Below are positions 20,621 to 43,726 of a DNA stretch of 44,788 bases, in pieces; position 1 is the first letter of the stretch, and the number at the start of each line of letters is the position of its first letter. The DNA lies in the NCBI GenBank assembly GCA_001829125.1, contig MIAN01000034.1, positions 8,223 to 53,010 on the forward strand, given 5' to 3'. The position numbers and the translations under genes were made by a program. The stretch is from Spirochaetes bacterium GWB1_27_13. Lineage in GTDB: Bacteria; Spirochaetota; GWE2-31-10; MWDO01. The notes beneath the pieces are model-generated. The model saw nothing but the letters and a program-made list of their open reading frames with translations. It was not told where the DNA came from and ran no database searches.

Positions 20621-20722
20621 TAAGGAAAGACATGGGAGAATTTGAGAGATTAAAATTTCTTGACTTTTTGTGGTAATTTAATTATTGTTTTTACAAATCA
20701 TTGGTTTTGGAGTAAAAGTAAA

Positions 20723-21856
20723 ATGAGAATAAATTCTATCCAGTTTAAGGATAAACAAAGAGGCTGGGAATTAGAAGAACTCAAATTTGATGATCTAAAT
20801 TTGTTGGTTGGTATCTCTGGTGCTGGCAAAACTCAGATATTAAATGCGATTTTAGCGATTAAGAATATTTTAGATGAGAATTTAACATCTGGGATAAATT
20901 GGAAAATAGATTTTATTGAAGGAAACGATAATTATATATGGGAAGGTGAGTTAAGCGAACTAGAAGATGATGATACATCTCTTTTTCCTTATATAACACA
21001 CTCTGAAATAATAAAAAAAATAAAATTTATTTTTGAAAAATTATATTTAAATGGAGATTTAATCGTAGATAGAACCGAAGAAAAAATAATTTATAATAAT
21101 AATCCTTTACCAAAACTTGATACTAATACTAGTATTCTCAAATTATTGGAAGAAGATAATTTAAAAAATGTAGTTAAGGCATTTGATAAAATAATATTTA
21201 GAGACTATACAAAAAATGAAAATCAACTTCAAATCTCTTCAAAAGATTATTATATAGACTGGAAAATTAAATTTAATTCAATAGAAAAATTAAAAATAGA
21301 AAATATTCCTTTGATTCCAAAAATATATATTACATCAAAATTATTTATAGATATTTTTAATGAAATAAAATCTAATTTTCTAGATATTTTTAGCCAAGTA
21401 GAAAATATAGAAGTTGTAAAAGAAATAAAGAATATAGGAAAAAATTTACTTAATTGTTATTACCTTAAAATAAAAATTAAAGATAGTGATAAATGGGTAA
21501 ACCAAAATAATATTTCTTCTGGTATGTTAAGAACTCTAATACATATAGCCGAAATGTATCTTTCTCCTGATGGCACTGTATTTCTAATTGATGAATTAGA
21601 AAATAGCCTTGGCATCAATTGTGTAAATTTTTTGAGTGAGGATTTGTTATTACAAAATAATAGGATGCAATTTATAGCAACAAGTCATCATCCTTACATT
21701 ATAAATAAAATCCCTTGCGAATATTGGAAAATTGTAACAAGAAAAGGTGGAAAAATAAAAGTATATGACACCACTCAATTTAACCTTGATAAATCTCACC
21801 ACGAAAACTTTTTTAAATTAATTAACCTAAAAGAATATCGAGAAGGTATCCAATAA
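20723..21856 (+). CDS. ABC/AAA_21-type ATPase (candidate defence)
   Basis: Walker A GISGAGKT, signature ISSGM, Walker B FLIDELENSL, H-loop TSHHP. Confidence 0.88.
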   Translation: MRINSIQFKDKQRGWELEELKFDDLNLLVGISGAGKTQILNAILAIKNILDENLTSGINWKIDFIEGNDNYIWEGELSELEDDDTSLFPYITHSEIIKKIKFIFEKLYLNGDLIVDRTEEKIIYNNNPLPKLDTNTSILKLLEEDNLKNVVKAFDKIIFRDYTKNENQLQISSKDYYIDWKIKFNSIEKLKIENIPLIPKIYITSKLFIDIFNEIKSNFLDIFSQVENIEVVKEIKNIGKNLLNCYYLKIKIKDSDKWVNQNNISSGMLRTLIHIAEMYLSPDGTVFLIDELENSLGINCVNFLSEDLLLQNNRMQFIATSHHPYIINKIPCEYWKIVTRKGGKIKVYDTTQFNLDKSHHENFFKLINLKEYREGIQ

Positions 21857-22545
21857 TGAGAATTTACATCTTAGTTGAAGGCGAAAACACAGAGATGGCT
21901 TTGTATCCTGCTTGGATTTCCTATATTTTACCAAATTTAAAACGAGTTGATGATTTTTTTAATATTGAAAATGATTCTTACTATATTGCAAGTGGCTATG
22001 GTTATCCAGCGATGATTCAGAATAACCATCTTATAAATGCTATTAAAGATATAAATGATAAGGGAGATATTGACTATCTAATCGTTTGCCTTGATGGTGA
22101 CACTGTTGGAGTTCAAGGAAGAAAAAACGAAATTTTAACACATCTTAAAGTTAATAATATTTCACTAATAAATAATTGTAAATTAGAAATAATTATTCAA
22201 AATATTTGTATTGAAACATGGCTTTTGGGTAATAAAAAAATGTATTCTAATGGTGAATTAAACAAAAATTTTATAGCATATTCAAAACATTACAATGTAT
22301 CTATAAATGACCCAGAATTAATGGAAAAGCCAAAAGATTATAAAAATTCAAAATCAATTTATCATTATTGCTATCTGATAGAAATGTTAAAACCAAAACT
22401 AAGATACTCTAAAGCTTCACCAAACAATGTAATAACAAAAAAATATTTTGATTCGTTACAAGATAGGTTTAATGATACACCAAATCATCTAGGAAGCCTA
22501 AAAACTCTTCTTGATTTATTACATTCTTTCATAAAATTTTCTTAA
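21856..22545 (+). CDS. TOPRIM-like protein (DUF4276/RloB/AriB-like), coupled to the ATPase
   Basis: N-terminal ILVEGENTE, CLDGD (DxD), IETWLLG; TAATG stop/start overlap. Confidence 0.7.
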   Translation: MRIYILVEGENTEMALYPAWISYILPNLKRVDDFFNIENDSYYIASGYGYPAMIQNNHLINAIKDINDKGDIDYLIVCLDGDTVGVQGRKNEILTHLKVNNISLINNCKLEIIIQNICIETWLLGNKKMYSNGELNKNFIAYSKHYNVSINDPELMEKPKDYKNSKSIYHYCYLIEMLKPKLRYSKASPNNVITKKYFDSLQDRFNDTPNHLGSLKTLLDLLHSFIKFS

Positions 22546-22859: not shown

Positions 22860-23921
22860 TCAGTAGTAAGAACCAAATAATACTATATCGCTAATTGAAT
22901 AATCAATTAATTCATCGTCGTGATAAAAGTAATTATTAATTATCTTAGATTCTTTTTTAGGTAAATAAGGATAGTCATATAAATCATAAACAACTTCACC
23001 CATTTTCTTATAATTAAGTTTTAACTTAAATTTTATCTCTCTTATAGAATTATCCCCTGTATTTTTTAAATTAAATGATAATTTTGTATATTTTTGACCA
23101 ATTCCACCATATTTATAACTAGTTGCCTCATATTTATAATATCGAGCCTTTACAATTTTTTTTCCAGCAGTAGAAAATTCTATAAAGCTTGATGTTGCAG
23201 AGTTTGCTGGTATTATCTTTTTTTCTTCCTCGTTTACATATACAGTACCATCAAATGCCTCTGCAAGAAGATAAACTATACATTTAGAGATTTCAAAATT
23301 TTCTTTATTGGTTAATGTATAATAAACTCGTGCTTTTCCCCATTCTATTAAATCTGTTGATTGGTCGGAAGTACTATCTTTGTCTTTATCGTCTTTGGTA
23401 TCCTTATCATTATTAGTCTTATTATCTTTGTCATTAGATAGGTCGTCTTTATTGCCATTGTTATCCTTATTGTTTTTATCATTGGATTTGTTGTCTTTAT
23501 TTCCATTATTATCTTTATTATCCTTATCTTTGTCTTCTTTACTATAATTAATATCATATTTTTCAAAAATACTTTCTATTTTACTATAATTTTTTGTATT
23601 TGAACTATCATCAAAAATATAAGAAGAATTATTTTTATGATATGTTGCTAATAAAATTGCCTTGTCTTTTTCCTCCACGATCGTTAGTATTTCTTTTTCA
23701 AAATAATTAGATTCTACCTTTATTGGTATTGTTTGCACTATTTTGTAAATCGATATTGATACTCTTTCAATATCTTTACATGAAATAATAGTCACATCTC
23801 CAGTTGCCGTAGGTTCTTTATAATTGTAAGACGACTTTGGATAATCGTCATAACCTCTACATCCCAACATAACTAAAACTAAACTTGAAATCAGTAAAAC
23901 ACAATACATTAAATTTTTCAT
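22860..23921 (-). CDS. Lipoprotein with K/D/N low-complexity repeat linker
   Basis: Signal peptide ending LVMLG-C; GGAGG RBS; 16-aa imperfect repeats NKDNNGNKD..SNDK. Confidence 0.85.
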   Translation of the reverse strand: MKNLMYCVLLISSLVLVMLGCRGYDDYPKSSYNYKEPTATGDVTIISCKDIERVSISIYKIVQTIPIKVESNYFEKEILTIVEEKDKAILLATYHKNNSSYIFDDSSNTKNYSKIESIFEKYDINYSKEDKDKDNKDNNGNKDNKSNDKNNKDNNGNKDDLSNDKDNKTNNDKDTKDDKDKDSTSDQSTDLIEWGKARVYYTLTNKENFEISKCIVYLLAEAFDGTVYVNEEEKKIIPANSATSSFIEFSTAGKKIVKARYYKYEATSYKYGGIGQKYTKLSFNLKNTGDNSIREIKFKLKLNYKKMGEVVYDLYDYPYLPKKESKIINNYFYHDDELIDYSISDIVLFGSYY

Positions 23922-24918: not shown

Positions 24919-25021
24919 AATTACCATTGAATAAATCCCAAAGAAAGAATATAATTTAAATATCTCAGGAAACAAGGGATAACTTACCTATTGTTTTCCA
25001 TAATATTAGCCTATTTTGGAG
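24919..25021 (+). promoter_or_regulatory. Roco1 promoter, 5'UTR hairpin and RBS (direct repeat copy 2)
   Basis: TTGAAT(24927)-17 nt-TATAAT(24950), GGAAACAAGGG...TTGTTTTCC hairpin, GGAGG. Confidence 0.85.
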
Positions 25022-25027
25022 GTTTTT

Positions 25028-28000
25028 ATGACAGATTTGGAGATATTGAGGAAGATTGAGGGGCGAATTGGGGAAAAATTTAAAAAAATTTCTGAAGATG
25101 AAATAAAAGAAGGATTTAATTCATTTCTTCTATTAGATAATTATTATTCTATAAATAAAAACAATGAAATAACTGGGATTTTAATACATAATATAAATTA
25201 CAAAAAATTTTATGATTTAATAATTAATTTAAAAAAATTGAAATATTTAGATTTATCATATAATCAAATAATTGATATATCAGCATTGAAAGATTTAACT
25301 AATTTAAATACTTTATATTTAGATGGTAATCAAATAAGCGATATATCAGCATTAAAAGATTTAACTAATTTAAATACTTTAGATTTAAGAAATAATCAAA
25401 TAAGCGATATATCAACATTAGAAGATTTAACTAATTTAAATACTTTAGATTTATCAGATAATCAAATAAGCGATATATCAGCATTAAAAGATTTAACTAA
25501 TTTAAATACTTTAGATTTATCTAATAATCAAATAAGCGATATATCAGCATTAAAAGATTTAACTAATTTAAATACTTTATATTTATCTAATAATCAAATA
25601 AGCGATATATCAGCATTAAAAGATTTAACTAATTTAAATACTTTATATTTACATAATAATCAAATAAGCGATATATCAGCATTAAAAGATTTAACTAATT
25701 TAAATAATTTATATTTACATAATAATCAAATAATCGATATATCAGCATTAAAAGATTTAACTAATTTAAATAATTTATATTTACATAATAATCAAATAAT
25801 CGATATATCAGCATTGAAAGATTTAACTAATTTAACTTATTTAAAATTATCAGATAATCAAATAAGCGATATATCAGCATTAAAAGATTTAACTAATTTA
25901 AATAATTTATCTTTATTTAATAATCAAATAAGCGATATATCAGCATTAAAAGATTTAAAAAAATTAAAAATATTATATTTAAATACAAATAAAATAAAAA
26001 TACTCTCAGAATGGATAACTGATTTTAAAGAAATGGATATATTTTGGAAAGAAAATTTTTATTATGATGGTTTAAATTTATATAACAACCCAATCGAATC
26101 CCCTCCTATTGAAATTATCGAACAAGGTAAAGAGGCAATAAGAAACTACTTTTCTCAAATTAAAAAACATGGGACAATACCAATTTATGAAGCAAAATTA
26201 ATGTTTGTTGGTGAGCCTGGATCTGGTAAGACTTCGCTTATGGAAAAGCTTTTAAACCCAAAATATAAGATACCTTGTGAGATAAACTCTACTTTGGGGG
26301 TGGATGTTAGAGCTGGTTGGGCATTCCCATACACAAAGGATAATACAATTGAGTTTAAGGCAAATCTTTGGGACTTTGGAGGGCAGGAGATACAATTTAT
26401 GCTCCATCAATTTTTTTTGACTGCAAGGTCTTTTTATGTGCTACTTGCAGATGATAGGAAACAAGATACTAATTTTGATTATTGGTTTAATATAATAAGA
26501 TTACTTGGCGGACAAAGCCCTGTGTTAGTCGTGTTAAATGAAAAAAATTATCAATCAATAACCAATTTTGACTATGAGGAATATGTAAAAAGGTATTCAG
26601 AACTTTCTATAGAAAGATTTGATATAGACCTTGCTAATGAGAATGAAAAATTTAAAAATCTTTTTCTAAAAATTCAAACAAACTTATCTAATTTAAAACA
26701 TATAGGCGACCCATTGCCTGCCAAATGGTCAGAAATCCGTAAAGAGTTGGAAAGTTTAAAAAATAAAAATCATATTTCTATAAGTGAATATTTTACTTTA
26801 TGTAATAAACATTCTATCACAAAGGAAGAGGACGCTTTATATCTAAGTGGGTATTTAAACGATATTGGGGTAATATTACATTACAAAGATGATCCAGTGT
26901 TATCAGATATAATATTTATTAATCCTCAGTGGGTTGTAAGTGCTATATATATCATATTATCAGATAAAAAATTAGAAAATAACGGTAAATTTACTAAAAA
27001 TTGGCTTTTTAATGTCTGGAAAGATAAAAATTACACTTATGAAGAACGAAATAAGTTACTAAGTCTTATGTTGAAAAATAATTTTGAGTTATGTTATGAT
27101 ATAAATGATAACGAATATATAGCCCCAATTTTATTGACAAAAATTAGACCAAAATTTAACTGGGACGAAACTGATAACCTACAATTTAGATTTAAATATC
27201 CTTTTATGCCAAAAGGAATTATCTCAAGACTCATAGTTAGGCTAAACGAATACATTATAAAAGAAAATGATAATTTTTTAGTTTGGGAATCTGGGGCTGT
27301 GTTACAAAAAGGAAATGTTAAGGCTTTGGTTTATCACGAGCTAACAAGAGATGAAGGAGTAAATGTTATAATAATAAAACTTTTTGGAGAAATTTATCTA
27401 AAAACTGAATTTTTAACTATAATATGTGAAAATATAGAACAAATTCACAAAAAATCATTTAAAGAACTCTATTATGAAAAATTATTTCCCTGTACTTGTA
27501 AAGAATGTAAACATTCTATAAATCCATATTTTTTTAAATATACTGACCTCATAAAACGGATTGAAAAAGGAAAACAAACAATAGAATGTCGTGATAGTAC
27601 CGAAGATGTTGAAATCAATAAAATACTAATGATAATAAAAGATGAAAGCGATAAATTATTAAAAAGTATATTACAAGCATCAAAAACTCTACAATCTGAG
27701 TATAAAACATTAAATTTGGGTCAAAAAGAAGATAATAGGACTAATTTTATATCAATTGAACTAAAAAAATATAATATAATCACAAAACCACAAAAACCAC
27801 ATGGGGATTCTGAAACTGGGAAGTCTTTTGGTGAAGTTGATATTGTTTTAGAAGATAAAAACCAACAAACTTCTGCACTTGTAGAAGCATTTAATTTAAA
27901 ATGTTTGTCTTCTGATGTTATTAGTTCACATTTAACTAAATTATTTAACTATGATAAAAATGGATTAGATGAAAATTATGTTTTAATTTATGTAGAAACA

Positions 28001-28222
28001 GACAAATTTTTTGATTTATGGCAAAAATATTTTGATTTTGTTAAAAATATTGATTTTAAATACAAATTGTTTGATATTCAAGATATTTCAAGAGATATTG
28101 GCACTCCTGCCGATATTAGAGTAGCCTGTGCAAGACAAGATCGCAATAAAAAAATCATTAGAACTTATCATATTTTTATATACTTAAACGCTTTTAAATG
28201 GTCAATATCTAATAAGAGTTGA
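25028..28222 (+). CDS. Roco protein 1: LRR-Roc GTPase-COR with C-terminal PD-(D/E)XK nuclease-like domain
   Basis: Internalin-like 22-aa LRRs, NPIESPP, GEPGSGKT, WDFGGQ..HQFFLT, COR (FMPKGIISRLIVR, CTCKEC); tail EDNRT...GEVDIVL...VEAFNL. Confidence 0.9.
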   Translation: MTDLEILRKIEGRIGEKFKKISEDEIKEGFNSFLLLDNYYSINKNNEITGILIHNINYKKFYDLIINLKKLKYLDLSYNQIIDISALKDLTNLNTLYLDGNQISDISALKDLTNLNTLDLRNNQISDISTLEDLTNLNTLDLSDNQISDISALKDLTNLNTLDLSNNQISDISALKDLTNLNTLYLSNNQISDISALKDLTNLNTLYLHNNQISDISALKDLTNLNNLYLHNNQIIDISALKDLTNLNNLYLHNNQIIDISALKDLTNLTYLKLSDNQISDISALKDLTNLNNLSLFNNQISDISALKDLKKLKILYLNTNKIKILSEWITDFKEMDIFWKENFYYDGLNLYNNPIESPPIEIIEQGKEAIRNYFSQIKKHGTIPIYEAKLMFVGEPGSGKTSLMEKLLNPKYKIPCEINSTLGVDVRAGWAFPYTKDNTIEFKANLWDFGGQEIQFMLHQFFLTARSFYVLLADDRKQDTNFDYWFNIIRLLGGQSPVLVVLNEKNYQSITNFDYEEYVKRYSELSIERFDIDLANENEKFKNLFLKIQTNLSNLKHIGDPLPAKWSEIRKELESLKNKNHISISEYFTLCNKHSITKEEDALYLSGYLNDIGVILHYKDDPVLSDIIFINPQWVVSAIYIILSDKKLENNGKFTKNWLFNVWKDKNYTYEERNKLLSLMLKNNFELCYDINDNEYIAPILLTKIRPKFNWDETDNLQFRFKYPFMPKGIISRLIVRLNEYIIKENDNFLVWESGAVLQKGNVKALVYHELTRDEGVNVIIIKLFGEIYLKTEFLTIICENIEQIHKKSFKELYYEKLFPCTCKECKHSINPYFFKYTDLIKRIEKGKQTIECRDSTEDVEINKILMIIKDESDKLLKSILQASKTLQSEYKTLNLGQKEDNRTNFISIELKKYNIITKPQKPHGDSETGKSFGEVDIVLEDKNQQTSALVEAFNLKCLSSDVISSHLTKLFNYDKNGLDENYVLIYVETDKFFDLWQKYFDFVKNIDFKYKLFDIQDISRDIGTPADIRVACARQDRNKKIIRTYHIFIYLNAFKWSISNKS
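25262..25965 (+). repeat. Eleven 66-bp tandem LRR-coding repeats
   Basis: AATCAAATAA..GATATATCAGCATTAAAAGATTTAACTAATTTAAAT recurring every 66 nt from 25262 to 25922. Confidence 0.95.
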
Positions 28223-28423: not shown

Positions 28424-28590
28424 GGGGCTACTGAATAAGTCATTAGAAAACGCCAGAAGCATACTTTTTTTATCTCTTTAAAAATGCACGTATTTTCAAT
28501 GGATAATTTAAAAACCCTTGCATTTTTAAAGATGATTTTTGATTATAACTTGTTATATAATAATGAATTATGGATTTATTCAACAAACTC
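28424..28590. mobile_element. MITE-like element (167 bp)
   Basis: Imperfect TIRs GGGGCTACTGAATAAGTC / GATTTATTCAACAAACTC, inner IR TCTTTAAAAATGCA / TGCATTTTTAAAGA, TAATTA on both flanks. Confidence 0.65.
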
Positions 28591-30320
28591 TAATTAGTAT
28601 CTTTTTTTATTGGCAATTCAATACCTAATGATTGTGAAAAACTAATGATTTTTTGGATAAAAGCCATTAGGTTATCAACAAGTGGTTCTTTATCGTTAGA
28701 CTGAAAAATCCTTAAGTCTTTAATTTGTGGTATGTTAGCCGCAATTGCTGGAAGTTCTTTAATTAAATCATTTAATAATACATTGTTATTTACCATATTT
28801 CTTATTTCTTGCTTCATTTTTTCTATACTTACCATCTGTTCATCTATTTGATACTTTAATTTATTTCTTTCTTCTTCAACTAAAATAATTGATTTTTCTT
28901 CTGCTACTTTTCTATCAAGATGCGCATCGAGTTTTTGTTTTTCTATAAGGTCTGCATGATTTTGATACAAGGCTTTTAGTTCCATTTCTTTTTTTTCAAG
29001 AAGAATTTCTAATTCTATTTGTTTTGATTTGATTTTATAAATATTTTCTTTTAATCTTGCTTCTTCTTCTGTAGAAAATAATTCTTTATCTGTTTGTAGA
29101 GAAACTTCTCTTTTTATAGAATCAAGTTCAAGCCTTAGTTTTTCTTCGTTCATTTGATTATTTTGTTTTAAAATTTCTATCTCACGATTGAGTTTTAACT
29201 GATTTTCTAAGGTTATTAGGCGTTCTTCTGCTTCTTTCTTTGAAATTACAGTTTGTTCTTCAAGTTTTAATTTATTTTGAATAGATTGTTGTTCTTTATC
29301 ATATCTTTGAGTTTCTTCATTAAGTCTTATATGAATAGTTTCTGTTTGTTTTTTTTGTTTAATTAATTCTATCTGATGATTAGTCTCTGCTTCTCTTGTT
29401 TCTCTTTGCATCCGCGTCTCTAATTCTTTTTTATTAATTTCGTCTGTCATTTCTAGATTACTAATCCTTGATTTTTTCTTTTGCTCGTTTCTATATGGGC
29501 TTTGCAAATCTTCCCATAATGAACTTGAACAAACTATTGCTTCTCTAATCTGTACAGTTATTATTTTAATACCAAGCCCTTCTTTGACAAATTGTTCACC
29601 TTTTTTTTGTCCTTCGGCAACAAGCTTTAGTCTATTTGTAAGTTCTTCTATAATTGGTGCTTTATCAGTAAGAACTTCTTCAACACTCATCGTTGCTATC
29701 TTGTCTTTAATAGCAGCCTCAGCCTGTTCTCGCAGTTGAGCATTTACAATACCAAGAGGATCCCTTGAGTCAGAAAAATCGAGTTTTTTATAGGCTAAAG
29801 AAAAATCTTCAATCTGCCATTGGACATAAGCGAGTACATTAATTCCTTGTTTTTCTTTTGAAATACAATTTGCGACAACACCTATTGTTTGCATTGCAGA
29901 TGGAATAATCAGATAGGCATCGGTATTTGGGTTATACCTGAATGACAAGCCCATTCCAAGTGTTATGGGGTCTTTTTTATTAATACGTGTATGAATAACA
30001 TAAGCATTTGGTGGAACGATTACTTTCTTCCAAAAAAAAGAGCCTGTTATTTTAATTTTTATTGGTTCTTTTTCAAGTTGCATATCTTCTGATGTTTTCA
30101 TAGTATTTATAGGGATAGATTTTTTTAGTTTGGGAGTAGAAGCTGATACGGATGACATAGGAGATGGGCTACCACCCATTATACCCGGCACATTAGCACT
30201 ATATGCGGTTTGGCTAAGATCATTTAATTGAATTGGACTATCATCCAAAGGCATAGCCTCTTCACTTTCTAAGACCTGTTGTTCTATAAAAATATCTTTT
30301 GCTGATTTTTTTTTATCCAT
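28590..30320 (-). CDS. SPFH/flotillin family protein with long coiled coil
   Basis: VVPPNAY-like start of SPFH domain, ISKEKQGINV.AYVQWQI, MSVEEVLTDK, GLGIKI..VQIRE, E/K/Q-rich coil. Confidence 0.85.
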   Translation of the reverse strand: MDKKKSAKDIFIEQQVLESEEAMPLDDSPIQLNDLSQTAYSANVPGIMGGSPSPMSSVSASTPKLKKSIPINTMKTSEDMQLEKEPIKIKITGSFFWKKVIVPPNAYVIHTRINKKDPITLGMGLSFRYNPNTDAYLIIPSAMQTIGVVANCISKEKQGINVLAYVQWQIEDFSLAYKKLDFSDSRDPLGIVNAQLREQAEAAIKDKIATMSVEEVLTDKAPIIEELTNRLKLVAEGQKKGEQFVKEGLGIKIITVQIREAIVCSSSLWEDLQSPYRNEQKKKSRISNLEMTDEINKKELETRMQRETREAETNHQIELIKQKKQTETIHIRLNEETQRYDKEQQSIQNKLKLEEQTVISKKEAEERLITLENQLKLNREIEILKQNNQMNEEKLRLELDSIKREVSLQTDKELFSTEEEARLKENIYKIKSKQIELEILLEKKEMELKALYQNHADLIEKQKLDAHLDRKVAEEKSIILVEEERNKLKYQIDEQMVSIEKMKQEIRNMVNNNVLLNDLIKELPAIAANIPQIKDLRIFQSNDKEPLVDNLMAFIQKIISFSQSLGIELPIKKDTN

Positions 30321-30444: not shown

Positions 30445-33400
30445 TTATCGTTCTCTTCTTAAAACTACGATAGTTATATCATCGATAGGTTTATTATCAC
30501 ACCATTCCAAAACATTTTGTAATATTGCTTGTTTTATTTCCTTACAACTTTTATTACCATTTTGTTCTACGAGGATTTGTAAATTTTCTATTCCCCATAA
30601 TTGAAATTTATCACCAGCTTTTCTTGCTTCTATTATTCCATCTGTATATAAAACAACTACATCATCAATATCTATTTTGAAATTATTATCATTTGTATCT
30701 TTTGTAATATCTTCTTTTAGTGACAAAACAGTACCATAAGTTTTAATTATGTCAACGGATTTAGTTTTTGCTCTATAAATTAAAATATCAAGATGTGATC
30801 CACTGTATAAAAACTCACCATTACCAAGATATTTTAATAAAATCATAGTCATAAAATGAAATTCTTCGAGCCTTAGTCTTATGTTTTCCCATAACGCTTT
30901 ATTTATATCTATTATTACATCTTTTGGAGTACAAGTTATACTGTCATCTTTAATTTTAGTATTGAAAGCAGTTTCTGCCATAATCATAATTAAACCTGGC
31001 GTTACTCCATGTCCTGACACATCGCCAATTGCAATCCAGAGTTTGTTGTCTTTATCAAATCCAATATCATAATAATCACCACTTACTTCTTCAGCGGGTT
31101 GCATCATAGCAGAAATTTCTAATTCCTCATTTTCTATATGTTTTGGACATAAAGAAGTTTGTATTTTTTGAGCAATTTCCATTTCTTGTTTAAGTCTTTC
31201 TTTTTCTTTCATATCTTCAATTAGTTGAGTATTTTCTATTGAAATTGCAATCTGAGTAGACAAAACTTTTAAGACCTCTATTTGTTCTCGTGTAAAATAA
31301 GAATTAAATACATTATTTTCAATATATAAAATTCCAACTAAACGAGATTGGTTTAAAATTGATAAACAAATTATTGATTTAGGTTTCTTTTTTATAATAT
31401 AAACATCTTTTGCATACAAACTCTTATCTATACCTTCGTTTAAAATTAAATTTTTTTTAGTTTCTAAAACATTAGAAACAATAGATAAGGGAATATTTTC
31501 ATATTTATAAATTGGGATTGATTTTAATAAAACTGACTCTTTATCACCTATACCTTCTGCCTCAACAAAAACGGCTTCGTCTTTTTGTAAGATTAATACA
31601 ACTCTTTCACAACTTGTTATTTTCATTGCTATTTTTATTACTTTTATTATCAACGTATCAATGTCTATCTCACTTGATATTGCCTGATTTGCTTTCATCA
31701 CGCTATTTATATCTAAAGAATAAGTTATTGTATTAATTGTATCGCTATTAACGTCTGTTTTTGGAGTAAAAAGAAATGATTTAATGTTTTTTTCCATTAA
31801 GTTGTCAAAATCCATTTCTAATCCAATATTATGAAACATATATGAATATTTTTTTTCCATATATTTTACTTTTATGGAAGCATCCCATTTGGTATAACAA
31901 TATATAGATTCTACTAAATAAGTTTGAGCAATTTTTTTCATATTTTTTAATAAATAGAATTTGGCTGCACATTCATTTGCTATCGCTTCAAAATTAATAA
32001 ATTCATTATTTTTTGAACATTTTATTGCTTCATCATACAAAGACATTGCTTCTTGATTTTTTCCAATTATGCTATTATATTCTGCTAGTATCAATTTATA
32101 ATTATGTTCAAATGTACAAGAAGAATCTTTTGCCCATTTACTATATTTTTTTATAATAAACTTATATTTTTTTAAGTAATATTTTTTTTCTTTATCGTTA
32201 AAATAATTCCACCTTTCTTTTATCAATAAAGCATAGAAAAAATAAAACAATGGCAATGTAATAAACGAATTAGAACCAGAAATAATTATTTTTTCTTTTT
32301 CTCTTGCCATATCTAAACCATTAGCAAAATCATCAAAAAGATAAGCCAAAAATATTTTATTACAATAAAAACCTGCAATTGCTTGTAAGTTTTTTACTTC
32401 AATAAGGTATTGATAGTGAATATCTTCATCAAAAAAACTACCTTTAATTTTTAAGACATTCTCATTTTTTTCTGTACCACTAAGGATTATTATCATTTGA
32501 GACCAAATTTTATAAATAATTGTAACTGATTGTTTTATTCTTTTATCTATAATGGAAAGTTTCATTATTTCATCTTTTGCATCTTTTAAATTTGTAGAAA
32601 GTAGAAATTTAAAAACAGCTTGAGTATTTAAAGAATAAGCCGAATATTCAAGATCGCCAGATTCTAATGACTTTGATAATGATGTTTTTAAAATATCCAT
32701 ACATTCTTTTAATGGATGTAGCCAATAATGTTCAAAACAAGCGTAAATCAATGAATTTCTTCCAAGAAAATAATTATTATCATATTTTTTGGCAAGTTCT
32801 ATACCTGCTTTTCCAAATTGTATCGAATTTTTTGCGTCTCCTAACATTCCATTTAAAACAACACCATAAGAAGTCAAACCAAAACTTGAAGGAACACTAA
32901 AACCATGTATCATAGAATACATAGTAGTTTTAATTACCAAAATAGTCATTAAAGATGTATCATAAAAAAATGCTGCTCCTGTTGCTGCTATCATTATATC
33001 TAATGTTTGCAATATTTTTGTATTAGTTAGAGTTTTAAATTTCTTAAGATTAGTAATTTTTCTATTTCTAATTATAAGTTTTGATATAAATAATTCTTTT
33101 ATAATATCAAAAACTGTTGTTTTTTCTGGTTCTTTTATATTTACCCCAAGTATTTTTAAGGCTTGTTTTACTAAAAGCAATGCCTCTCTATATTTTTGAG
33201 AGCCAGCATATTTAATTATTTGAAATCTATAAACATCAACTTTGTCCATATCATTATTACAATTTTTTAGAATTTCTTTAAGAATTTTTTCTGATTCTTC
33301 AAAGTTTCCATTTAAAAACTCTGCTTCTGCTTTAAGAAGATATATTTGAAATGTTCTTTTATAATTTTTTTGCCAACTCTCATTATCAAGTAAATTTATT

Positions 33401-35658
33401 GCAATATTAAAATAATTTAATGAAGCATCAAAAGCCTCATTAGATTTTGATTTAAGACCTGCTTGATAATTTAGCTCAATAAGTTGAAATTTTTCTTCTT
33501 TATTTAATATATTTTTTGCCAGATTTAATTGGTTTACTATGTTAAAAAGTTTATCCTCGTGAATTTGTTCTCTTTGAATTAACATAAACCTTTTACCTAT
33601 TTTATAGTGAATTTCTTCTTGTTCTTCTTGGCTAATTAAGCTATAAGAAGCCTCTAATACTCTGTCATGAATAAATTTTCCTTCATTTCCTGTTTTAACT
33701 ATAATTCCTTGATTAATAGCTTCTGTTATATCATCTAAAGTCTCTTTTTCGGATTTTTCGTAGACAGCAGATAAAACATCAAATGGAAATTTTATTCCTA
33801 TACAACATGCGATCTTTAAAGTATCTAATGTTTTTTCTGGAAGTTTTTTAATTCGCCCTGCCATAAGTTCTACAACATTGTCAGTAATCCGAGATTGTTG
33901 TATTTTATCTAACTGCCACTTCCAACCTTTATCAAATTTAATAAGTTCATCATCACAAAGTTGTTTTATGAATTCTAAAACAAAAAAAGGATTACCACCT
34001 GTTTTTTCTAAAATAAGTTTTGCTAAATCTAATACTTTATCATTTTCAATCTTAAAAGAGTCTGATAATAAAGAGCTTATATTTTGGCTAGTAAATGGAG
34101 GTAATTTGATATTAACCATATCAACATCATTTTTGCCAATATTATCAAATGCAATAGAAAGAGGATGTCCTATATTTATTTCATTATCCCTATATGCTCC
34201 AATAAAAAGAAAATATTCTAATTCATGGTCCATTAGAAGATTTTGAATCAATTTAATACTTGCACCATCAGCCCACTGTAAATCATCTATAAATAATACA
34301 AGAGGATGAGATTGTTTGCTAAAAACTTTTATAAAATTTTGAAAAACAAGGTTAAATCTATTTAATGACTCATTAATACCTAATTGTTCAATATATGGCT
34401 GACTACCTATTATTAATTCTAATTCTGGGATTACATCTATGATAACTTTGCCATTGTTACCAACAGCTTCTAAAATTTCATCTTTAAATATTTTTATTCT
34501 TTCATTGTTTTCTGTAATTATTTGTTTAACCAAACTTTGGAAGGCTTGAATAATCGCAGAGTAAGGAACATTTCTTTCAAATTGCTCGTATTTACCATCT
34601 ATAAAATATCCTTTTTTTTCGACTACGGGTTTCTGTATTTCGTTTATAAGTGATGATTTACCAATACCAGAAATTCCACCAAAAAATACCGCTCTTTTTT
34701 TCCCAGAACAAACAGTGTCAAAAATATTCAAAAGATTTTCTAAATACTCTTCTCTTCCATAAAGTTTTTCAGGAATTTGAAACTTATCAGGAATATCATT
34801 TTTAGCAATTTCAAAATCTTCTATTTTTCCGTTTTCAATAAGCATATTGTAGCATTTTTCTAAATCATATATTAAACCATATATACTTTGATATCTATCC
34901 TCTGCATTTTTATTTAGAAGTTTAAGAATAATCTTAGATATAACAATATGTATTTTTTTATTTAACTTATTAGGAGGGTCTGGAATTTTTGCTATATGAC
35001 AATGTATCAACTCCATAGAATCTTTCGCTATAAAAGGGAGTCTTCCTGTAATAAGTTCATACAGTGTAACACCCAAAGAATAGTAATCAGTTCTATAATC
35101 GATAGACCTATTCATTCTACCTGTCTGTTCTGGGCTTATGTATGCTAAAGTACCTTCAATTCTTTCTGGGCTTACCATATTTTGATTTTCTTTTGAAAGT
35201 TGAGTTGCTATACTAAAATCTATAATTTTGATCTCATTTGTTTTTTGGTTTAAAAGAATATTATGCGGTTTTATATCTTTATGTATTATATGTTTTTTGT
35301 GAATTTCTCCAATAATAGATGCTATTTTTATTGCTATTTCAAGAAATAACTTTATATCTATTTTTTTTTTACTAATTATGCTATCGAGAGAAACTCCTTC
35401 AAAATCTTCCATTATAACAGCAAGGGTGTGCCCATATTTTACTAAATCATAATTTTTGATTACCCCACAGATATTTAAACTATTACAAATATCATATTCA
35501 GTCTTAAATTTATTTAACTTTTCAGGTGTAGGATACTCTTTTTTTAAAATTTTTATTATAACAGGAGTATTATTTTCTTCTGATTTTGCTTTATAAATAT
35601 TAGAATTAGAACTAGAATATATTTTTTCGTAAATCCTATATCCTGTTACATCGATCAT
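30445..35658 (-). CDS. Ser/Thr kinase - AAA/STAND ATPase - helical repeats - GAF - PP2C(SpoIIE) phosphatase
   Basis: HKDIKPHN, YISPEQTGR; GISGIGKS, IDDLQWAD, GGNPFF; GILYIEN GAF; SGDYYD, GDVSGHG, YTDGIIE, DDITIV. Confidence 0.93.
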   Translation of the reverse strand: MIDVTGYRIYEKIYSSSNSNIYKAKSEENNTPVIIKILKKEYPTPEKLNKFKTEYDICNSLNICGVIKNYDLVKYGHTLAVIMEDFEGVSLDSIISKKKIDIKLFLEIAIKIASIIGEIHKKHIIHKDIKPHNILLNQKTNEIKIIDFSIATQLSKENQNMVSPERIEGTLAYISPEQTGRMNRSIDYRTDYYSLGVTLYELITGRLPFIAKDSMELIHCHIAKIPDPPNKLNKKIHIVISKIILKLLNKNAEDRYQSIYGLIYDLEKCYNMLIENGKIEDFEIAKNDIPDKFQIPEKLYGREEYLENLLNIFDTVCSGKKRAVFFGGISGIGKSSLINEIQKPVVEKKGYFIDGKYEQFERNVPYSAIIQAFQSLVKQIITENNERIKIFKDEILEAVGNNGKVIIDVIPELELIIGSQPYIEQLGINESLNRFNLVFQNFIKVFSKQSHPLVLFIDDLQWADGASIKLIQNLLMDHELEYFLFIGAYRDNEINIGHPLSIAFDNIGKNDVDMVNIKLPPFTSQNISSLLSDSFKIENDKVLDLAKLILEKTGGNPFFVLEFIKQLCDDELIKFDKGWKWQLDKIQQSRITDNVVELMAGRIKKLPEKTLDTLKIACCIGIKFPFDVLSAVYEKSEKETLDDITEAINQGIIVKTGNEGKFIHDRVLEASYSLISQEEQEEIHYKIGKRFMLIQREQIHEDKLFNIVNQLNLAKNILNKEEKFQLIELNYQAGLKSKSNEAFDASLNYFNIAINLLDNESWQKNYKRTFQIYLLKAEAEFLNGNFEESEKILKEILKNCNNDMDKVDVYRFQIIKYAGSQKYREALLLVKQALKILGVNIKEPEKTTVFDIIKELFISKLIIRNRKITNLKKFKTLTNTKILQTLDIMIAATGAAFFYDTSLMTILVIKTTMYSMIHGFSVPSSFGLTSYGVVLNGMLGDAKNSIQFGKAGIELAKKYDNNYFLGRNSLIYACFEHYWLHPLKECMDILKTSLSKSLESGDLEYSAYSLNTQAVFKFLLSTNLKDAKDEIMKLSIIDKRIKQSVTIIYKIWSQMIIILSGTEKNENVLKIKGSFFDEDIHYQYLIEVKNLQAIAGFYCNKIFLAYLFDDFANGLDMAREKEKIIISGSNSFITLPLFYFFYALLIKERWNYFNDKEKKYYLKKYKFIIKKYSKWAKDSSCTFEHNYKLILAEYNSIIGKNQEAMSLYDEAIKCSKNNEFINFEAIANECAAKFYLLKNMKKIAQTYLVESIYCYTKWDASIKVKYMEKKYSYMFHNIGLEMDFDNLMEKNIKSFLFTPKTDVNSDTINTITYSLDINSVMKANQAISSEIDIDTLIIKVIKIAMKITSCERVVLILQKDEAVFVEAEGIGDKESVLLKSIPIYKYENIPLSIVSNVLETKKNLILNEGIDKSLYAKDVYIIKKKPKSIICLSILNQSRLVGILYIENNVFNSYFTREQIEVLKVLSTQIAISIENTQLIEDMKEKERLKQEMEIAQKIQTSLCPKHIENEELEISAMMQPAEEVSGDYYDIGFDKDNKLWIAIGDVSGHGVTPGLIMIMAETAFNTKIKDDSITCTPKDVIIDINKALWENIRLRLEEFHFMTMILLKYLGNGEFLYSGSHLDILIYRAKTKSVDIIKTYGTVLSLKEDITKDTNDNNFKIDIDDVVVLYTDGIIEARKAGDKFQLWGIENLQILVEQNGNKSCKEIKQAILQNVLEWCDNKPIDDITIVVLRRER

Positions 35659-40722: not shown

Positions 40723-43683
40723 TTAAATCTCCTCAATTATTTTTTGAAATTGGTTTGTGAGTTGAAGAATTAAACTTTCTTTTGTGTCGTATTGGTTAAA
40801 AATTTGTTGATATTTGTTAAAAATCTCATCTTTTAGGTCGCAAAGTTCGTTAAATTCAGCCCTATTTTGTGAATTTGCCTTAAAATCAACATCTTTAAAG
40901 TAAACATAGAGATAATGAGGCTTCATTCTGGCTTTAAAATTTTTGTAAGCAAGTTCAAACTCTTCTTTTGTAAAATCACCAACTCTATCGCTAAATAATA
41001 CGATAACAATATCACATTTTGACATTTCTGTATTTATATAATCCTGTATTTTATCACCTGCAAAGCTATGCTTTAAATCTTCCCACAAAACTAACTCCAA
41101 ATACTTATTTTTGTCGATAAGGCGGTTATTTGACCTATTAACTAATAATTCCACCGCTTCTCTATCAGAGATCATATCTTTACCAGATGCAAGAAATATT
41201 TTTACTTTTTTGTGTGACATAATAGGCTCTTTTTGGCTAAATTCTTTGATATTTATATAAAAATCTTCAATACCTTCTAAAAGTTTTGATATATTTACAT
41301 CATTAGTAGTTTTTTGACATTCTATCGTCTGTTTTCCCTTATTTTTATAGTTTTTTAGAATATTGTAGTTAAAAAATTGAGGGTCATTATCTTTTTTACA
41401 TTCCTCACAACAGCAAGGTATCATTTCTTTTAACGGTGGAAAATTTAGCGTTTTGTGGATATAATAAAATTTTTCTCTTATAGCAGAAAGTAAATTTTTT
41501 TTATCAATCCCATCTATAAAAATCTTAATTTTTCTATTTAATGGCTCGCTTATAATCAATGCTTTTGCACCTTCATATTTTAAAATAACTCCGTATTTCC
41601 AATAAGTATTGTTATCTATAAGATGATTTGTTATGACTATAAAACGAGGCATAATACCTGCTGGCATAAAATCGTATTGATATTCAAATCGTAAATTATC
41701 TTTATACTCCCAGTTAAAATCAGGTCTTGCTTGCGGAAGAAGTTCTGGGATGATGTATTCCTCAACTTCTGGTATCTTAAAACATAATTCAAATTTTTTC
41801 ATTAACTCAAGTAGGTTTTTGTGTTGAGTCTTTGGATAACCTTTCCATATCAACTCAATGTCAGTTAGATTAAATTTACCCTTTTTTAGTAAAATCTCCT
41901 TTGTATCAAGCACTTTATACACTGCATCAGTTGCCCATTCTGGCTTTAAAAAAATAATTTCTTTTAATATTGTGTTATCATTAAAATTTAAAAAAACGCC
42001 AAGATCATGATAATATCTACTCAAAAACATTGATTTTTCTTCATTAAGATAATATTCTTTACAAATATCCTCGTATTCTATATAATTTATATAATTTTTG
42101 TTTAAATCTTCAAGTTTTTTTCTAATATCAATCCATGTTTTTGGTAATTTACTACCTACATGTGGAAGATTTTCTATATTACTACGGATAATTTGACTAA
42201 GTTCATCAATACCAGCCCCAGTTTTTGCACTTACTTTAAAAAATCCAATTATATTTGGAAATTTTTCTTGTATGGTTTTTTCATCAATAGTTTTTAGCCT
42301 CTCATCAGTTTTATTTAAAACAACTATTATTGGCGACTCATTAGTTAAAATCCTAATTGTATTAAGCCAGTAATCAAAACTCAATATATCAGTATCTTTA
42401 CGAGCCTCCCAAACAAAAAGATACAAAGACCTCTTAGTCAAAAAAAATTGATGTGTCGAATGATATATCTCCTGACCTCCAAAATCCCATATATTTATCC
42501 TAAAATCATTAGTTTTATTAGTTTTTACATCCCACCTTCTAATATCAATCCCTTCTGTTGTTTTTTCTTTAGATATATCAATATTTGGGTCAATTAATTT
42601 TTTCATCAAACTTGTTTTACCAACATCCCCCTCTCCTACAATCAAAAGTTTTGCCTCAAATAATTCAACTTCTTGAGATTTTTTTAAGTTTTCAAAATAG
42701 TTTTTTATCGCATCTTTGCCTTGTTTAAATATTTCGATTGGTGGGGATTCAATGGGATTACCATCCAAATTTAATCCTTTTTCTAAAAAATGTAAATGTT
42801 CTTCCAATATATAAATTTTTTGAAAACGAATTATCCATTCTTGAAGTTTCTTTATTTTATTTTTTTTTAAATTTAATAATTCTAATTTTTTTAAATCTTT
42901 TAAAGGTAATATATCACTTACATGATTATTTCTTAAATTTAAAATGGTTAAATTAGTTAAATCTTTTAATGCTGATATATCAGTTATTTGATTAATTTTT
43001 AAATCTAGAATATTTAAATTAGTTAAATCTTTTAACGCTGATATATCGATTATTTGATTACTTGATAAATCTAGAATATTCAAATTAGTTAAATCTTTTA
43101 ATGAAGATATCTCTCTTATTTGATTACCTGTTAAATACAAAGTATTTAAATTAATTAAATCTTTTAATGGGGATATATTTCTTAGTTGATTATGTGATAT
43201 ATCTAAAGTATTTAAATTAGTCAAATTTTTCAATGGAGTTATATCTATTAGTATATTATTATGTGATATATTTAAACTATTTAAATTAGTTAAATCTTTC
43301 AATGCTGATATATCAATTATTTGATTATGTGATATATCTAAAGTATTTAAATTAGTCAAGTTTTTCAATGGGGTTATATTGCTTAATTGATTACATCTTA
43401 AACTTAAATAACTTAGGTTAATAAAATCTGTTAATACTGATAGATCAAGGTTATTATGACTCAAATATAAATATTGTAAATTTTTAAAACTAATCATTAA
43501 GTCATAAAAATTTCTATAATTTATATTAAATATTGAAAGTCCAGTTATCTTATCATTTTTATTTATAGAATAATAACTATAGTCCTCTTTATCAAACTTT
43601 TTTATTATTTCATCTTCAGAAACCTTTTCAAATTTTTTCCCAATTCGCCCCTCAATCTTCCTCAATATCTCCAAATCCGTCAT
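40723..43683 (-). CDS. Roco protein 2: LRR-Roc GTPase-COR with C-terminal TIR/DUF4062-like domain
   Basis: LRRs, NPIESPP, GEGDVGKT, WDFGGQ, NKTD, SAK, COR (FMPAGIMPRFIV, CCCEEC); tail KIFLAS...CDIVIVLF..RVG.FTKEEFELA...YVYFK. Confidence 0.9.
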   Translation of the reverse strand: MTDLEILRKIEGRIGKKFEKVSEDEIIKKFDKEDYSYYSINKNDKITGLSIFNINYRNFYDLMISFKNLQYLYLSHNNLDLSVLTDFINLSYLSLRCNQLSNITPLKNLTNLNTLDISHNQIIDISALKDLTNLNSLNISHNNILIDITPLKNLTNLNTLDISHNQLRNISPLKDLINLNTLYLTGNQIREISSLKDLTNLNILDLSSNQIIDISALKDLTNLNILDLKINQITDISALKDLTNLTILNLRNNHVSDILPLKDLKKLELLNLKKNKIKKLQEWIIRFQKIYILEEHLHFLEKGLNLDGNPIESPPIEIFKQGKDAIKNYFENLKKSQEVELFEAKLLIVGEGDVGKTSLMKKLIDPNIDISKEKTTEGIDIRRWDVKTNKTNDFRINIWDFGGQEIYHSTHQFFLTKRSLYLFVWEARKDTDILSFDYWLNTIRILTNESPIIVVLNKTDERLKTIDEKTIQEKFPNIIGFFKVSAKTGAGIDELSQIIRSNIENLPHVGSKLPKTWIDIRKKLEDLNKNYINYIEYEDICKEYYLNEEKSMFLSRYYHDLGVFLNFNDNTILKEIIFLKPEWATDAVYKVLDTKEILLKKGKFNLTDIELIWKGYPKTQHKNLLELMKKFELCFKIPEVEEYIIPELLPQARPDFNWEYKDNLRFEYQYDFMPAGIMPRFIVITNHLIDNNTYWKYGVILKYEGAKALIISEPLNRKIKIFIDGIDKKNLLSAIREKFYYIHKTLNFPPLKEMIPCCCEECKKDNDPQFFNYNILKNYKNKGKQTIECQKTTNDVNISKLLEGIEDFYINIKEFSQKEPIMSHKKVKIFLASGKDMISDREAVELLVNRSNNRLIDKNKYLELVLWEDLKHSFAGDKIQDYINTEMSKCDIVIVLFSDRVGDFTKEEFELAYKNFKARMKPHYLYVYFKDVDFKANSQNRAEFNELCDLKDEIFNKYQQIFNQYDTKESLILQLTNQFQKIIEEI
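42880..43420 (-). repeat. Degenerate 66-bp LRR tandem repeats of Roco2
   Basis: Recurrent AAAGATTTAACTAATTTAAAT on the minus strand; one unit almost identical to Roco1 25250-25315. Confidence 0.85.
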
Positions 43684-43726
43684 AAAAACCTCCAAAATAG
43701 GCTAATATTATGGAAACAAGGGGTAG

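Follow-up and report, generated by a model that had tools for sequence, protein, structure and literature searches.

To our knowledge, bacterial Roco proteins have served as structural models for human LRRK2, and none of them has a known biological function. A prokaryotic system built on AP-GTPase (Roc) and COR domains has been predicted to take part in counter-invader conflict, and in passages of that study the leucine-rich repeats (LRRs) evolve rapidly, the C-terminal domains number at least 24, and single genomes carry multiple paralogues (Kaur, Iyer, Burroughs, Aravind, eLife 2021; PMC8195603); in the part of another paper that was available, AP-GTPase with COR is mentioned only in passing (Kaur et al. 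2020; PMC7159879). Here we analyzed a 44,788-nucleotide stretch of Spirochaetes bacterium GWB1_27_13 (GCA_001829125.1, contig MIAN01000034.1, positions 8,223 to 53,010 of the forward strand), hereafter referred to as the window, which contains an array of near-identical 66-bp LRR units. Judged by its domain matches, the array is the N-terminal LRR region of an LRR-Roc-COR (Roco, AP-GTPase) protein, a bacterial relative of human LRRK2. At the level of sequence, the window Roco is an unusually clean case of a receptor architecture already predicted for bacterial immunity.

Among solved structures, the best match of the LRR region was PDB 5il7/6hlu/8r4b ('Rab family protein'; E 1e-83 to 1e-85), entries that we take to be the Roco protein of Chlorobium tepidum (CtRoco). 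That protein shares the LRR-Roc-COR core and is studied as a model of LRRK2, whereas the window protein adds a C-terminal module and departs from the canonical G4 motif. The next-best solved match was InlA (E 9e-75); class 1 internalins of Listeria, which are secreted and anchored to the wall, have the same 22-residue LRR type (LxxLxxLxLxxNxIxDIxxLxx), and the window protein differs from them in having Roc-COR and no signal-peptide-like N-terminus. Like the systems of Kaur et al. (PMC8195603), the window Roco combines N-terminal LRRs, a Roc/AP-GTPase, COR and a variable C-terminus, with paralogues of differing C-termini in one genome, although the passages of that study describe neither near-identity of units at the DNA level nor which LRR positions vary; the C-terminal module of the window Roco may already be among the at least 24 domains given there. 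Fast-evolving N-terminal LRRs fused to AP-GTPase-COR and C-termini that vary among paralogues, the marks of a Kaur-type system, were both found here.

Lamprey variable lymphocyte receptors (VLRs) are assembled somatically from flanking cassette libraries. They resemble the array in their invariant LRR scaffold and variable xLxLxx concave positions, whereas the window variation is inherited and no cassettes were found in the assembly. In fungal and bacterial NLRs, WD40, TPR and ANK repeats are highly internally conserved (HIC; Paoletti 2007 and Dyrka 2014, cited in Dyrka et al. 2020), and passages of the latter describe units that are 80-90% identical with few hypervariable surface positions, propose reshuffling under positive selection, state that such arrays need long reads for assembly, and note that prokaryotic NLRs typically lack LRRs. 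The window array is similar in its near-identical units (here 92% DNA identity) with few hypervariable surface positions, but it joins LRRs to a Roc GTPase instead of a NACHT or NB-ARC ATPase. Brown-algal LRR-ROCO proteins, which share the LRR-ROC-COR architecture, are proposed immune receptors whose near-uniform LRR modules undergo duplication and shuffling, with diversifying selection acting on them (Teng et al. 2024, PMC11378527; Zambounis 2012 cited there); passages of that paper describe each LRR as a separate 72-bp exon subject to exon shuffling and alternative splicing, whereas the window units are contiguous 66-bp coding DNA. By analogy, the fungal NLR repeats and the brown-algal ROCO exons appear to be better analogues than VLRs. 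Our literature search, which covered the main text of papers, gave no account of DNA-level near-identical, concave-hypervariable LRR units in a bacterial Roco, and the available part of a 2026 preprint on bacterial pattern-recognition STAND proteins mentions neither LRR nor Roco. Receptor evolution through highly internally conserved repeats, described for WD40, TPR and ANK repeats in NLRs, would with this array also include LRRs and a bacterial GTPase switch.

The repeat array and where its units differ

The array lies within a 1064-codon open reading frame (ORF) that runs on the forward strand from the ATG at 25028 to the stop at 28222 and encodes a protein of 1064 aa. Its parts are as follows.

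25018-25022 and 25028-25030, + strand: ribosome-binding site GGAGG and ATG start, with five bases between them
25028-25228, + strand: N-terminal LRR cap, residues 1-67 (translation and model)
25229-25954, + strand: LRR array of 11 near-identical, in-frame 66-bp (22-residue) units, hypervariable at codons 5, 6, 8, 10 and 11
25229-25294, + strand: LRR unit 1 (codon register)
25889-25954, + strand: LRR unit 11 (codon register)
25955-26020, + strand: LRR unit 12, terminal and degenerate, LKKLKILYLNTNKIKILSEWIT (translation)
26021-26194, + strand: C-terminal LRR cap and linker to the GTPase, including NPIESPPIEII, a motif kept in the family consensus
26195-26683, + strand: Roc (AP-GTPase) domain, residues 390-552 (Pfam PF08477, 80.1 bits, cut-off 27)
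26717-27628, + strand: COR-A, residues 564-703, and COR-B, residues 716-867 (PF16095, 132.3 bits, cut-off 35.3; PF25497, 96.3 bits, cut-off 27)
27608-28222, + strand: C-terminal module of ~200 residues (the last 204), a candidate effector without a curated family

Tandem Repeats Finder called a period of 66 over 25236-25997 (11.6 copies, 90% matches, score 1147), and this call and the codon register together confirmed the near-identical 66-bp LRR units described in an earlier note on the window. The limits given there, 25262-25965, begin within unit 1 and end slightly beyond unit 11, and the note described the array while missing the Roc-COR GTPase to which it belongs. The units have the form L-T-N-L-N-x-L-x-L-x-x-N-Q-I-S-D-I-S-A-L-K-D, or in general terms LxxLxxLxLxxNQIsDISALKD, and the translated xLxLxx strings (YLDLSY, TLYLDG, TLDLRN, TLDLSD, TLDLSN, TLYLSN, TLYLHN, NLYLHN twice, YLKLSD and NLSLFN) are exactly the eleven that had been listed. 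Units 2-11 share 92% DNA identity, and unit 12 differs from the remaining units at 22-30 of 66 bases. The silent sites of the scaffold are nearly fixed: ATA, TCA, GCA and ACT are kept though alternatives of equal A+T content exist, and the rare serine codon AGC is present in 8 of 11 units.

We then made per-codon and Nei-Gojobori comparisons among the ten internal units (2-11). Variable nucleotide columns number 15 of 66, and the changes are not evenly spread along the aligned units, a point on which the earlier note had proposed just such an alignment: codons 5, 6, 8, 10 and 11, 5 of the 22, carry 16 of the 20 minimum changes (binomial P = 9e-8 for 15/66 sites). At these five x codons the proportion of non-synonymous differences (pN) was 0.337 and that of silent differences (pS) 0.125, and at the other 17 codons the values were 0.018 and 0.020, the last of which agrees with the claim that the scaffold is almost invariant including its silent sites. 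The x codons hold 15 non-synonymous changes versus 2 silent changes in the whole unit (12.4 and 12.6 sites, respectively; P ~0.001). This excess fits the diversifying selection that had been suggested, and, with small counts taken from repeats of a single gene, it is not decisive.

Neighbours within units 4-9 differ by 1-2 bases, as had been noticed for the central run, and their summed neighbour distance over the array is 39, whereas 100,000 random orders averaged 49.2 (P = 0.017). The central units were copied from one another recently, either arising by tandem duplication or homogenized through unequal exchange between units. A paralogous array in the same window (42891-43447, - strand) has the same amino-acid scaffold with a scaffold pS of 0.34-0.375 and a unit identity of 0.73-0.81; because of this silent divergence, the uniformity of the scaffold in units 2-11 reflects identity by descent or exchange, and not codon bias alone.

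We modelled the full-length protein with AlphaFold2 from an alignment of 26 sequences (A2). The LRR array reaches a predicted local distance difference test score (pLDDT) of 95-98, and three-residue beta strands at 73-75, 95-97, 117-119 and onward correspond to unit positions 6-8. In this model, Leu7 is buried, with positions 6 and 8 on either side of it in the concave sheet; positions 10 and 11 come after Leu9, at the edge of that sheet. As modelled, the units thus differ almost only at solvent-exposed positions on or just past the concave-face beta strand, and the earlier placing of the variation on the concave face is borne out. Such x positions are the usual ligand-contact positions of LRRs. 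The same has been stated for plant NB-LRRs in passages of PMC11378527.

To place the array among its relatives, we examined 123 proteins (120 from a homologue search plus cluster members) and, at the DNA level, 80 loci from one-per-species genomes. At least four LRR units of the same period were found in 67 of the 123 proteins, and in several unrelated proteins the units are 84-89% identical (protein) with variable columns 8, 10 and 11 and, as minor ones, 6, 13, 15 and 17 (for example P0040, P0061, P0109, P0031, P0110 and P0087). Scorable arrays were present at 59 of the 80 loci, with unit DNA identities of 0.43-0.90. In 14 of the 59, unit identity is 0.75 or higher; their mean entropy is greatest at positions 8, 10 and 11 (1.3-2.1 bits) and does not exceed 0.2 bits at the leucines. 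Both Tyr and Asp are found at position 8 in 38 of the 59 arrays. These comparisons indicate that concave-face hypervariability recurs in independent Roco arrays of many phyla with different scaffolds. Units 2-11 of the window (identity 0.92, scaffold pS 0.020) exceed all of these 59 arrays in uniformity, the lowest pS among the 59 being 0.095. At ~10 of the 80 loci (L034, L042, L045, L048, L061, L062, L071, L079, L088 and L090), the Roco gene runs off the contig end at its LRR side, a pattern consistent with near-identical units breaking short-read assemblies.

The Roco protein and its C-terminal module

In the Pfam matches, Roc is directly followed by COR-A and COR-B in that order, which is the defining arrangement of the Roco family, and LRR_4 scored 185 bits, above its cut-off. 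All four database forms of the protein begin with MTDLE, and the TTG at 25016 is merely the mechanical first start in the ORF list. The N-terminal cap, identical in the four length forms described below, has a pLDDT of 75-95 and helices at 3-14 and 23-29. Read from the translation, the N-terminus MTDLEILRKIEGRIGEKF is hydrophilic and contains no signal-peptide-like hydrophobic stretch; for this reason, and because internalin models score far under their cut-offs, the predicted protein is cytoplasmic and not an adhesin. We rejected an internalin or adhesin reading of the gene on the NCBIfam internalin_A score of 200.5 bits against a cut-off of 1600 and on the presence of Roc-COR in Pfam.

Canonical GTPases carry a P-loop of the form GxxxxGK[ST], a switch II DxxG and a G4 motif NKxD. 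The window Roco has the P-loop GEPGSGKT and the switch II WDFGGQE, both conserved in 26 of 26 aligned relatives, and its G4 position reads NEKN (26537-26548, residues 504-507). The second G4 residue is E in 20 of the 26 relatives and K in 3; for the fourth residue, the counts are 13 for N and 9 for D. This Roco clade may bind nucleotides with a specificity unlike that of classical GTPases. No STAND-type NACHT or NB-ARC domain appeared among the Pfam matches of the protein, only GTPase domains of the Roc/Ras type; by this domain content, the Roco protein is proposed to work like an NLR and is not a member of the NLR family.

The last 204 residues matched no Pfam, PADLOC or NCBIfam model. Against a library of 1.84 billion proteins, the module matched 714 proteins (E <= 0.001), and among the best 150 of these it lies at or near the C-terminus of proteins of 118-1407 aa; it also stands alone in proteins of ~200-260 aa. 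Ten module-bearing proteins were scanned for domains: six are Roco proteins or fragments, one of them with an added STAND-TPR (STAND-TPR-LRR-Roco), and the others comprise one with HSDR_N and a pPIWI-associated nuclease, one GNAT and three without a Pfam match. This spread resembles that of a mobile effector or adaptor module. In the full-length model, pLDDT is below 50 over 872-995 and 1004-1064, and the C-terminal region of that model is unusable because alignment A2 did not include the module. An AlphaFold2 model of the module alone reached a pLDDT of 87.5. The module alignment contains an invariant H108 together with invariant or near-invariant D78, E93, K111, Y115 and D116. Weak fold leads, all below significance, pointed to BstEII, McrC and DrdV (TM 0.3-0.4), and a protein-atlas lead to MunI scored 0.82, under the guide value of 0.9. 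We hypothesize from these models that the module may be nuclease-like (restriction-endonuclease-like, PD-(D/E)xK); nucleases of that class have an alpha-beta-beta-beta-alpha-beta core whose catalytic residues are acidic ones and Lys.

Length forms and competing explanations

The 90%-identity cluster of the Roco protein has four members of 1064, 1042, 1020 and 866 aa, which carry 12, 11, 10 and 3 units, respectively, in unchanged order. One of the twins, unit 8 or unit 9, is absent from the 1042-aa form; units 3-4 are absent from the 1020-aa form and units 3-11 from the 866-aa form. All four forms agree at every one of the 67 N-terminal and 733 C-terminal residues. At the joins of the three shorter forms, units are linked by 37-60 identical bases. 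Fifteen sequencing runs from 8 studies are listed for the stretch, as contigs only; 4 of them contain at least half of its sequence words, and the runs holding it are groundwater, soil or sediment metagenomes. The four forms fit unequal exchange and, equally, the mis-threading of identical 37-60-nt stretches by de Bruijn assemblers. Whether at least one length form is a real polymorphism appears about evenly balanced, and the reshuffling of units by recombination is plausible but unproven. It is a tentative possibility that the forms with 12, 11, 10 and 3 units are real alleles co-existing in one groundwater population, with units gained and lost orders of magnitude faster than point substitutions arise, and that they constitute a standing receptor repertoire coupled to a hitherto undescribed, widely shared, possibly nuclease C-terminal effector. 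If the length alleles are true, a bacterial population would hold a standing repertoire of Roco-type immune receptor variants. The number of units in such genes should not be read from short-read assemblies.

The explanation that we favour, and consider probable, is that the array forms the ligand-sensing LRR arc of a cytoplasmic Roco protein (LRR, Roc, COR-A/COR-B and a variable C-terminal module) that has diversified on its concave face and is predicted to act as a counter-invader sensor. Selection would favour new residues at the concave positions, and gain, loss and exchange of units would keep the scaffold uniform, so that the recognition surface could change fast between lineages. Ligand binding by the LRRs may release the Roc-COR switch, by analogy with the GTP-driven dimer-to-monomer cycle of the Chlorobium Roco, and the released switch may in turn set off a counter-invader response by activating the C-terminal module, which is perhaps a nuclease. 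Such diversification would be germline and population-level, not programmed or somatic. The array, combined with a swappable C-terminal module, leads to the testable hypothesis that ligand sensing by LRRs gates Roc-COR in defence.

Several results weigh against this explanation. The selection test rests on 2 silent changes, and the genome, at ~25% G+C, disfavours many silent changes, which could make the estimated neutral rate too low. The 40 related genomes contained no orthologue, with matches at the LRR level only, and the metagenome collection, in which records close to the window's genome may be absent, gave a single relative (L025) that is 35% identical. The length forms may be assembly errors. 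For the module, neither Foldseek against PDB (0 matches at E <= 0.001) nor a profile search of PDB sequences returned a match, and the nuclease reading is without a significant match of fold or sequence. The non-canonical G4 (NEKN) leaves even the nucleotide used uncertain. PADLOC models match neither Roco of the window, and the literature searched holds no experiment showing a defence role for any bacterial Roco.

On a rival account, the protein would be a common signalling Roco whose array has expanded of late; its units would be alike as their duplications are young, and its x positions would vary as no others are free of constraint, with neither diversifying selection nor an immune role. 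Purifying selection acts on the scaffold of every LRR, the scarcity of silent changes (2) makes the contrast between non-synonymous and silent change statistically fragile, the continuum of unit identity in other genomes (0.43-0.90) is what simple ageing of duplications predicts, and no defence model matches either window Roco. Neutral x positions, however, should not outpace silent sites, and here pN at the x codons is 0.337 against a pS of 0.020-0.041 (P ~0.001); the adjacent units 6 and 7, otherwise identical, differ by two bases in one codon (TCT versus CAT). The recurrence of the same positions in independent arrays, with Tyr and Asp sharing position 8 in 38 of 59, and the variation of C-terminal modules among paralogues also speak against it, and we judge this account unlikely. 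A further concern is that the array as printed may be partly an assembly artefact, with units threaded, collapsed or mixed, perhaps from several strains, and with copy number, order and length forms produced by assemblers. The genome assembly (4.4 Mb, 87% complete) is in 273 contigs, the runs that contain the stretch are metagenomes available as contigs only, the shorter forms are otherwise 100% identical proteins joined at the 37-60 shared bases, the gene leaves the contig at its LRR side in ~10 of 80 related loci, and other near-identical arrays lie at contig ends (C105:1-682 and C64:1-486). Yet an assembler cannot create unit variants or concentrate them in five codons, the unit order is equal in all four forms, and the pattern is present in many other genomes; the 12-unit form is found on 4 contigs from several sources, possibly one assembly filed repeatedly. 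An artefact of this kind is accordingly improbable as an explanation of the array.

The invariant LRR scaffold with a variable concave face also recalls programmed diversification, whether VLR-like, with copy-choice among donor cassettes, or driven by a diversity-generating retroelement (DGR) that acts on the array; the resemblance is one of outcome only. When the array was compared with the whole assembly by blastn, the matches outside the gene were confined to other LRR genes, the best being 66.6-78.2% identical, and no near-identical LRR cassettes turned up elsewhere in the genome. None of 5 candidates in this 87%-complete genome was an RVT_1 reverse transcriptase. The variable columns are not limited to adenines: columns with C, G or T in the commonest unit are among them, and the majority of adenines do not vary. 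We rejected a VLR-like or DGR mechanism on these three grounds (no donor cassettes, no reverse transcriptase, no adenine bias) and regard programmed diversification as highly improbable; the term "VLR-like", which the earlier note had applied to the array, does not hold as a mechanism.

Paralogues, neighbouring genes and other repeats

Four COR-A matches were found in the genome, namely the window Roco, a 990-aa paralogue in the same window, a copy on contig C257 and a remnant on contig C79. The paralogues and one neighbouring gene pair are located as follows.

40723-43695, - strand: paralogous LRR-Roc-COR gene (ROCO-2), 990 aa, ~50% identical, with its array at 42891-43447
C257:1058-4831, - strand: Roco paralogue, the third in the genome, 1257 aa; ~20 LRRs with a period of 69 bp (78-84% matches)
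C79:12148-13981: Roco remnant, in which an LRR-only ORF (182 aa) overlaps a COR-A/COR-B ORF (431 aa) and Roc is missing
20660-22545, + strand: AAA_21 ATPase (398 aa) and a 229-aa ORF overlapping by one base (PADLOC AbiLi, E 1.4e-18; AbiLii, E 3e-6)

ROCO-2 has a near-identical N-terminal cap, a diverged 66-bp array (77% matches) and a different tail, whose sole match is a weak one to NPHP3 (E 6e-4). The C-terminus of the C257 copy matches the MCU (calcium uniporter) family of Pfam (E 7.5e-16), and the same label, PF04678, is carried by several other members of the Roco family; this MCU-like C-terminus is a possible membrane-pore effector. The C-termini therefore differ among the paralogues, comprising the uncurated module, the ROCO-2 tail and the MCU-like domain. 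The C79 remnant is probably a decayed or rearranged paralogue.

By its PADLOC matches, the gene pair at 20660-22545 is likely an abortive-infection pair, situated 2.5 kb upstream of the Roco gene. This context is the sole evidence here for an action of the Roco against invaders such as phage or plasmids. Convergent to the Roco gene is a gene for a 576-aa SPFH/Band 7 protein (28590-30320, - strand) with a Glu/Lys-rich, coiled-coil-like C-terminal half. At 30445-35658 (- strand), a 1737-aa protein combines a Ser/Thr kinase, an AAA_16 (STAND-like) ATPase, a GAF domain and a SpoIIE/PP2C phosphatase, and its kinase domain matches the PD-T4-6 models of PADLOC (E 7.6e-54). The 353-aa protein encoded at 22860-23921 (- strand) has a lipoprotein-like N-terminus (LVMLGC) and a low-complexity Asp/Asn/Lys region, which is encoded by 24- and 48-bp tandem repeats at 23375-23528.

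Other arrays of coding size are present at C105:1-682, C28:9541-9985, C64:1-486, C140:3908-4602 and C81:44434-45061 (87-94% matches; periods of 126, 120 and 111 bp), two of which, C105:1-682 and C64:1-486, adjoin contig ends. These arrays are possibly TPR-type repeats of other sensor proteins, and highly internally conserved repeats in this genome extend beyond the Roco genes.

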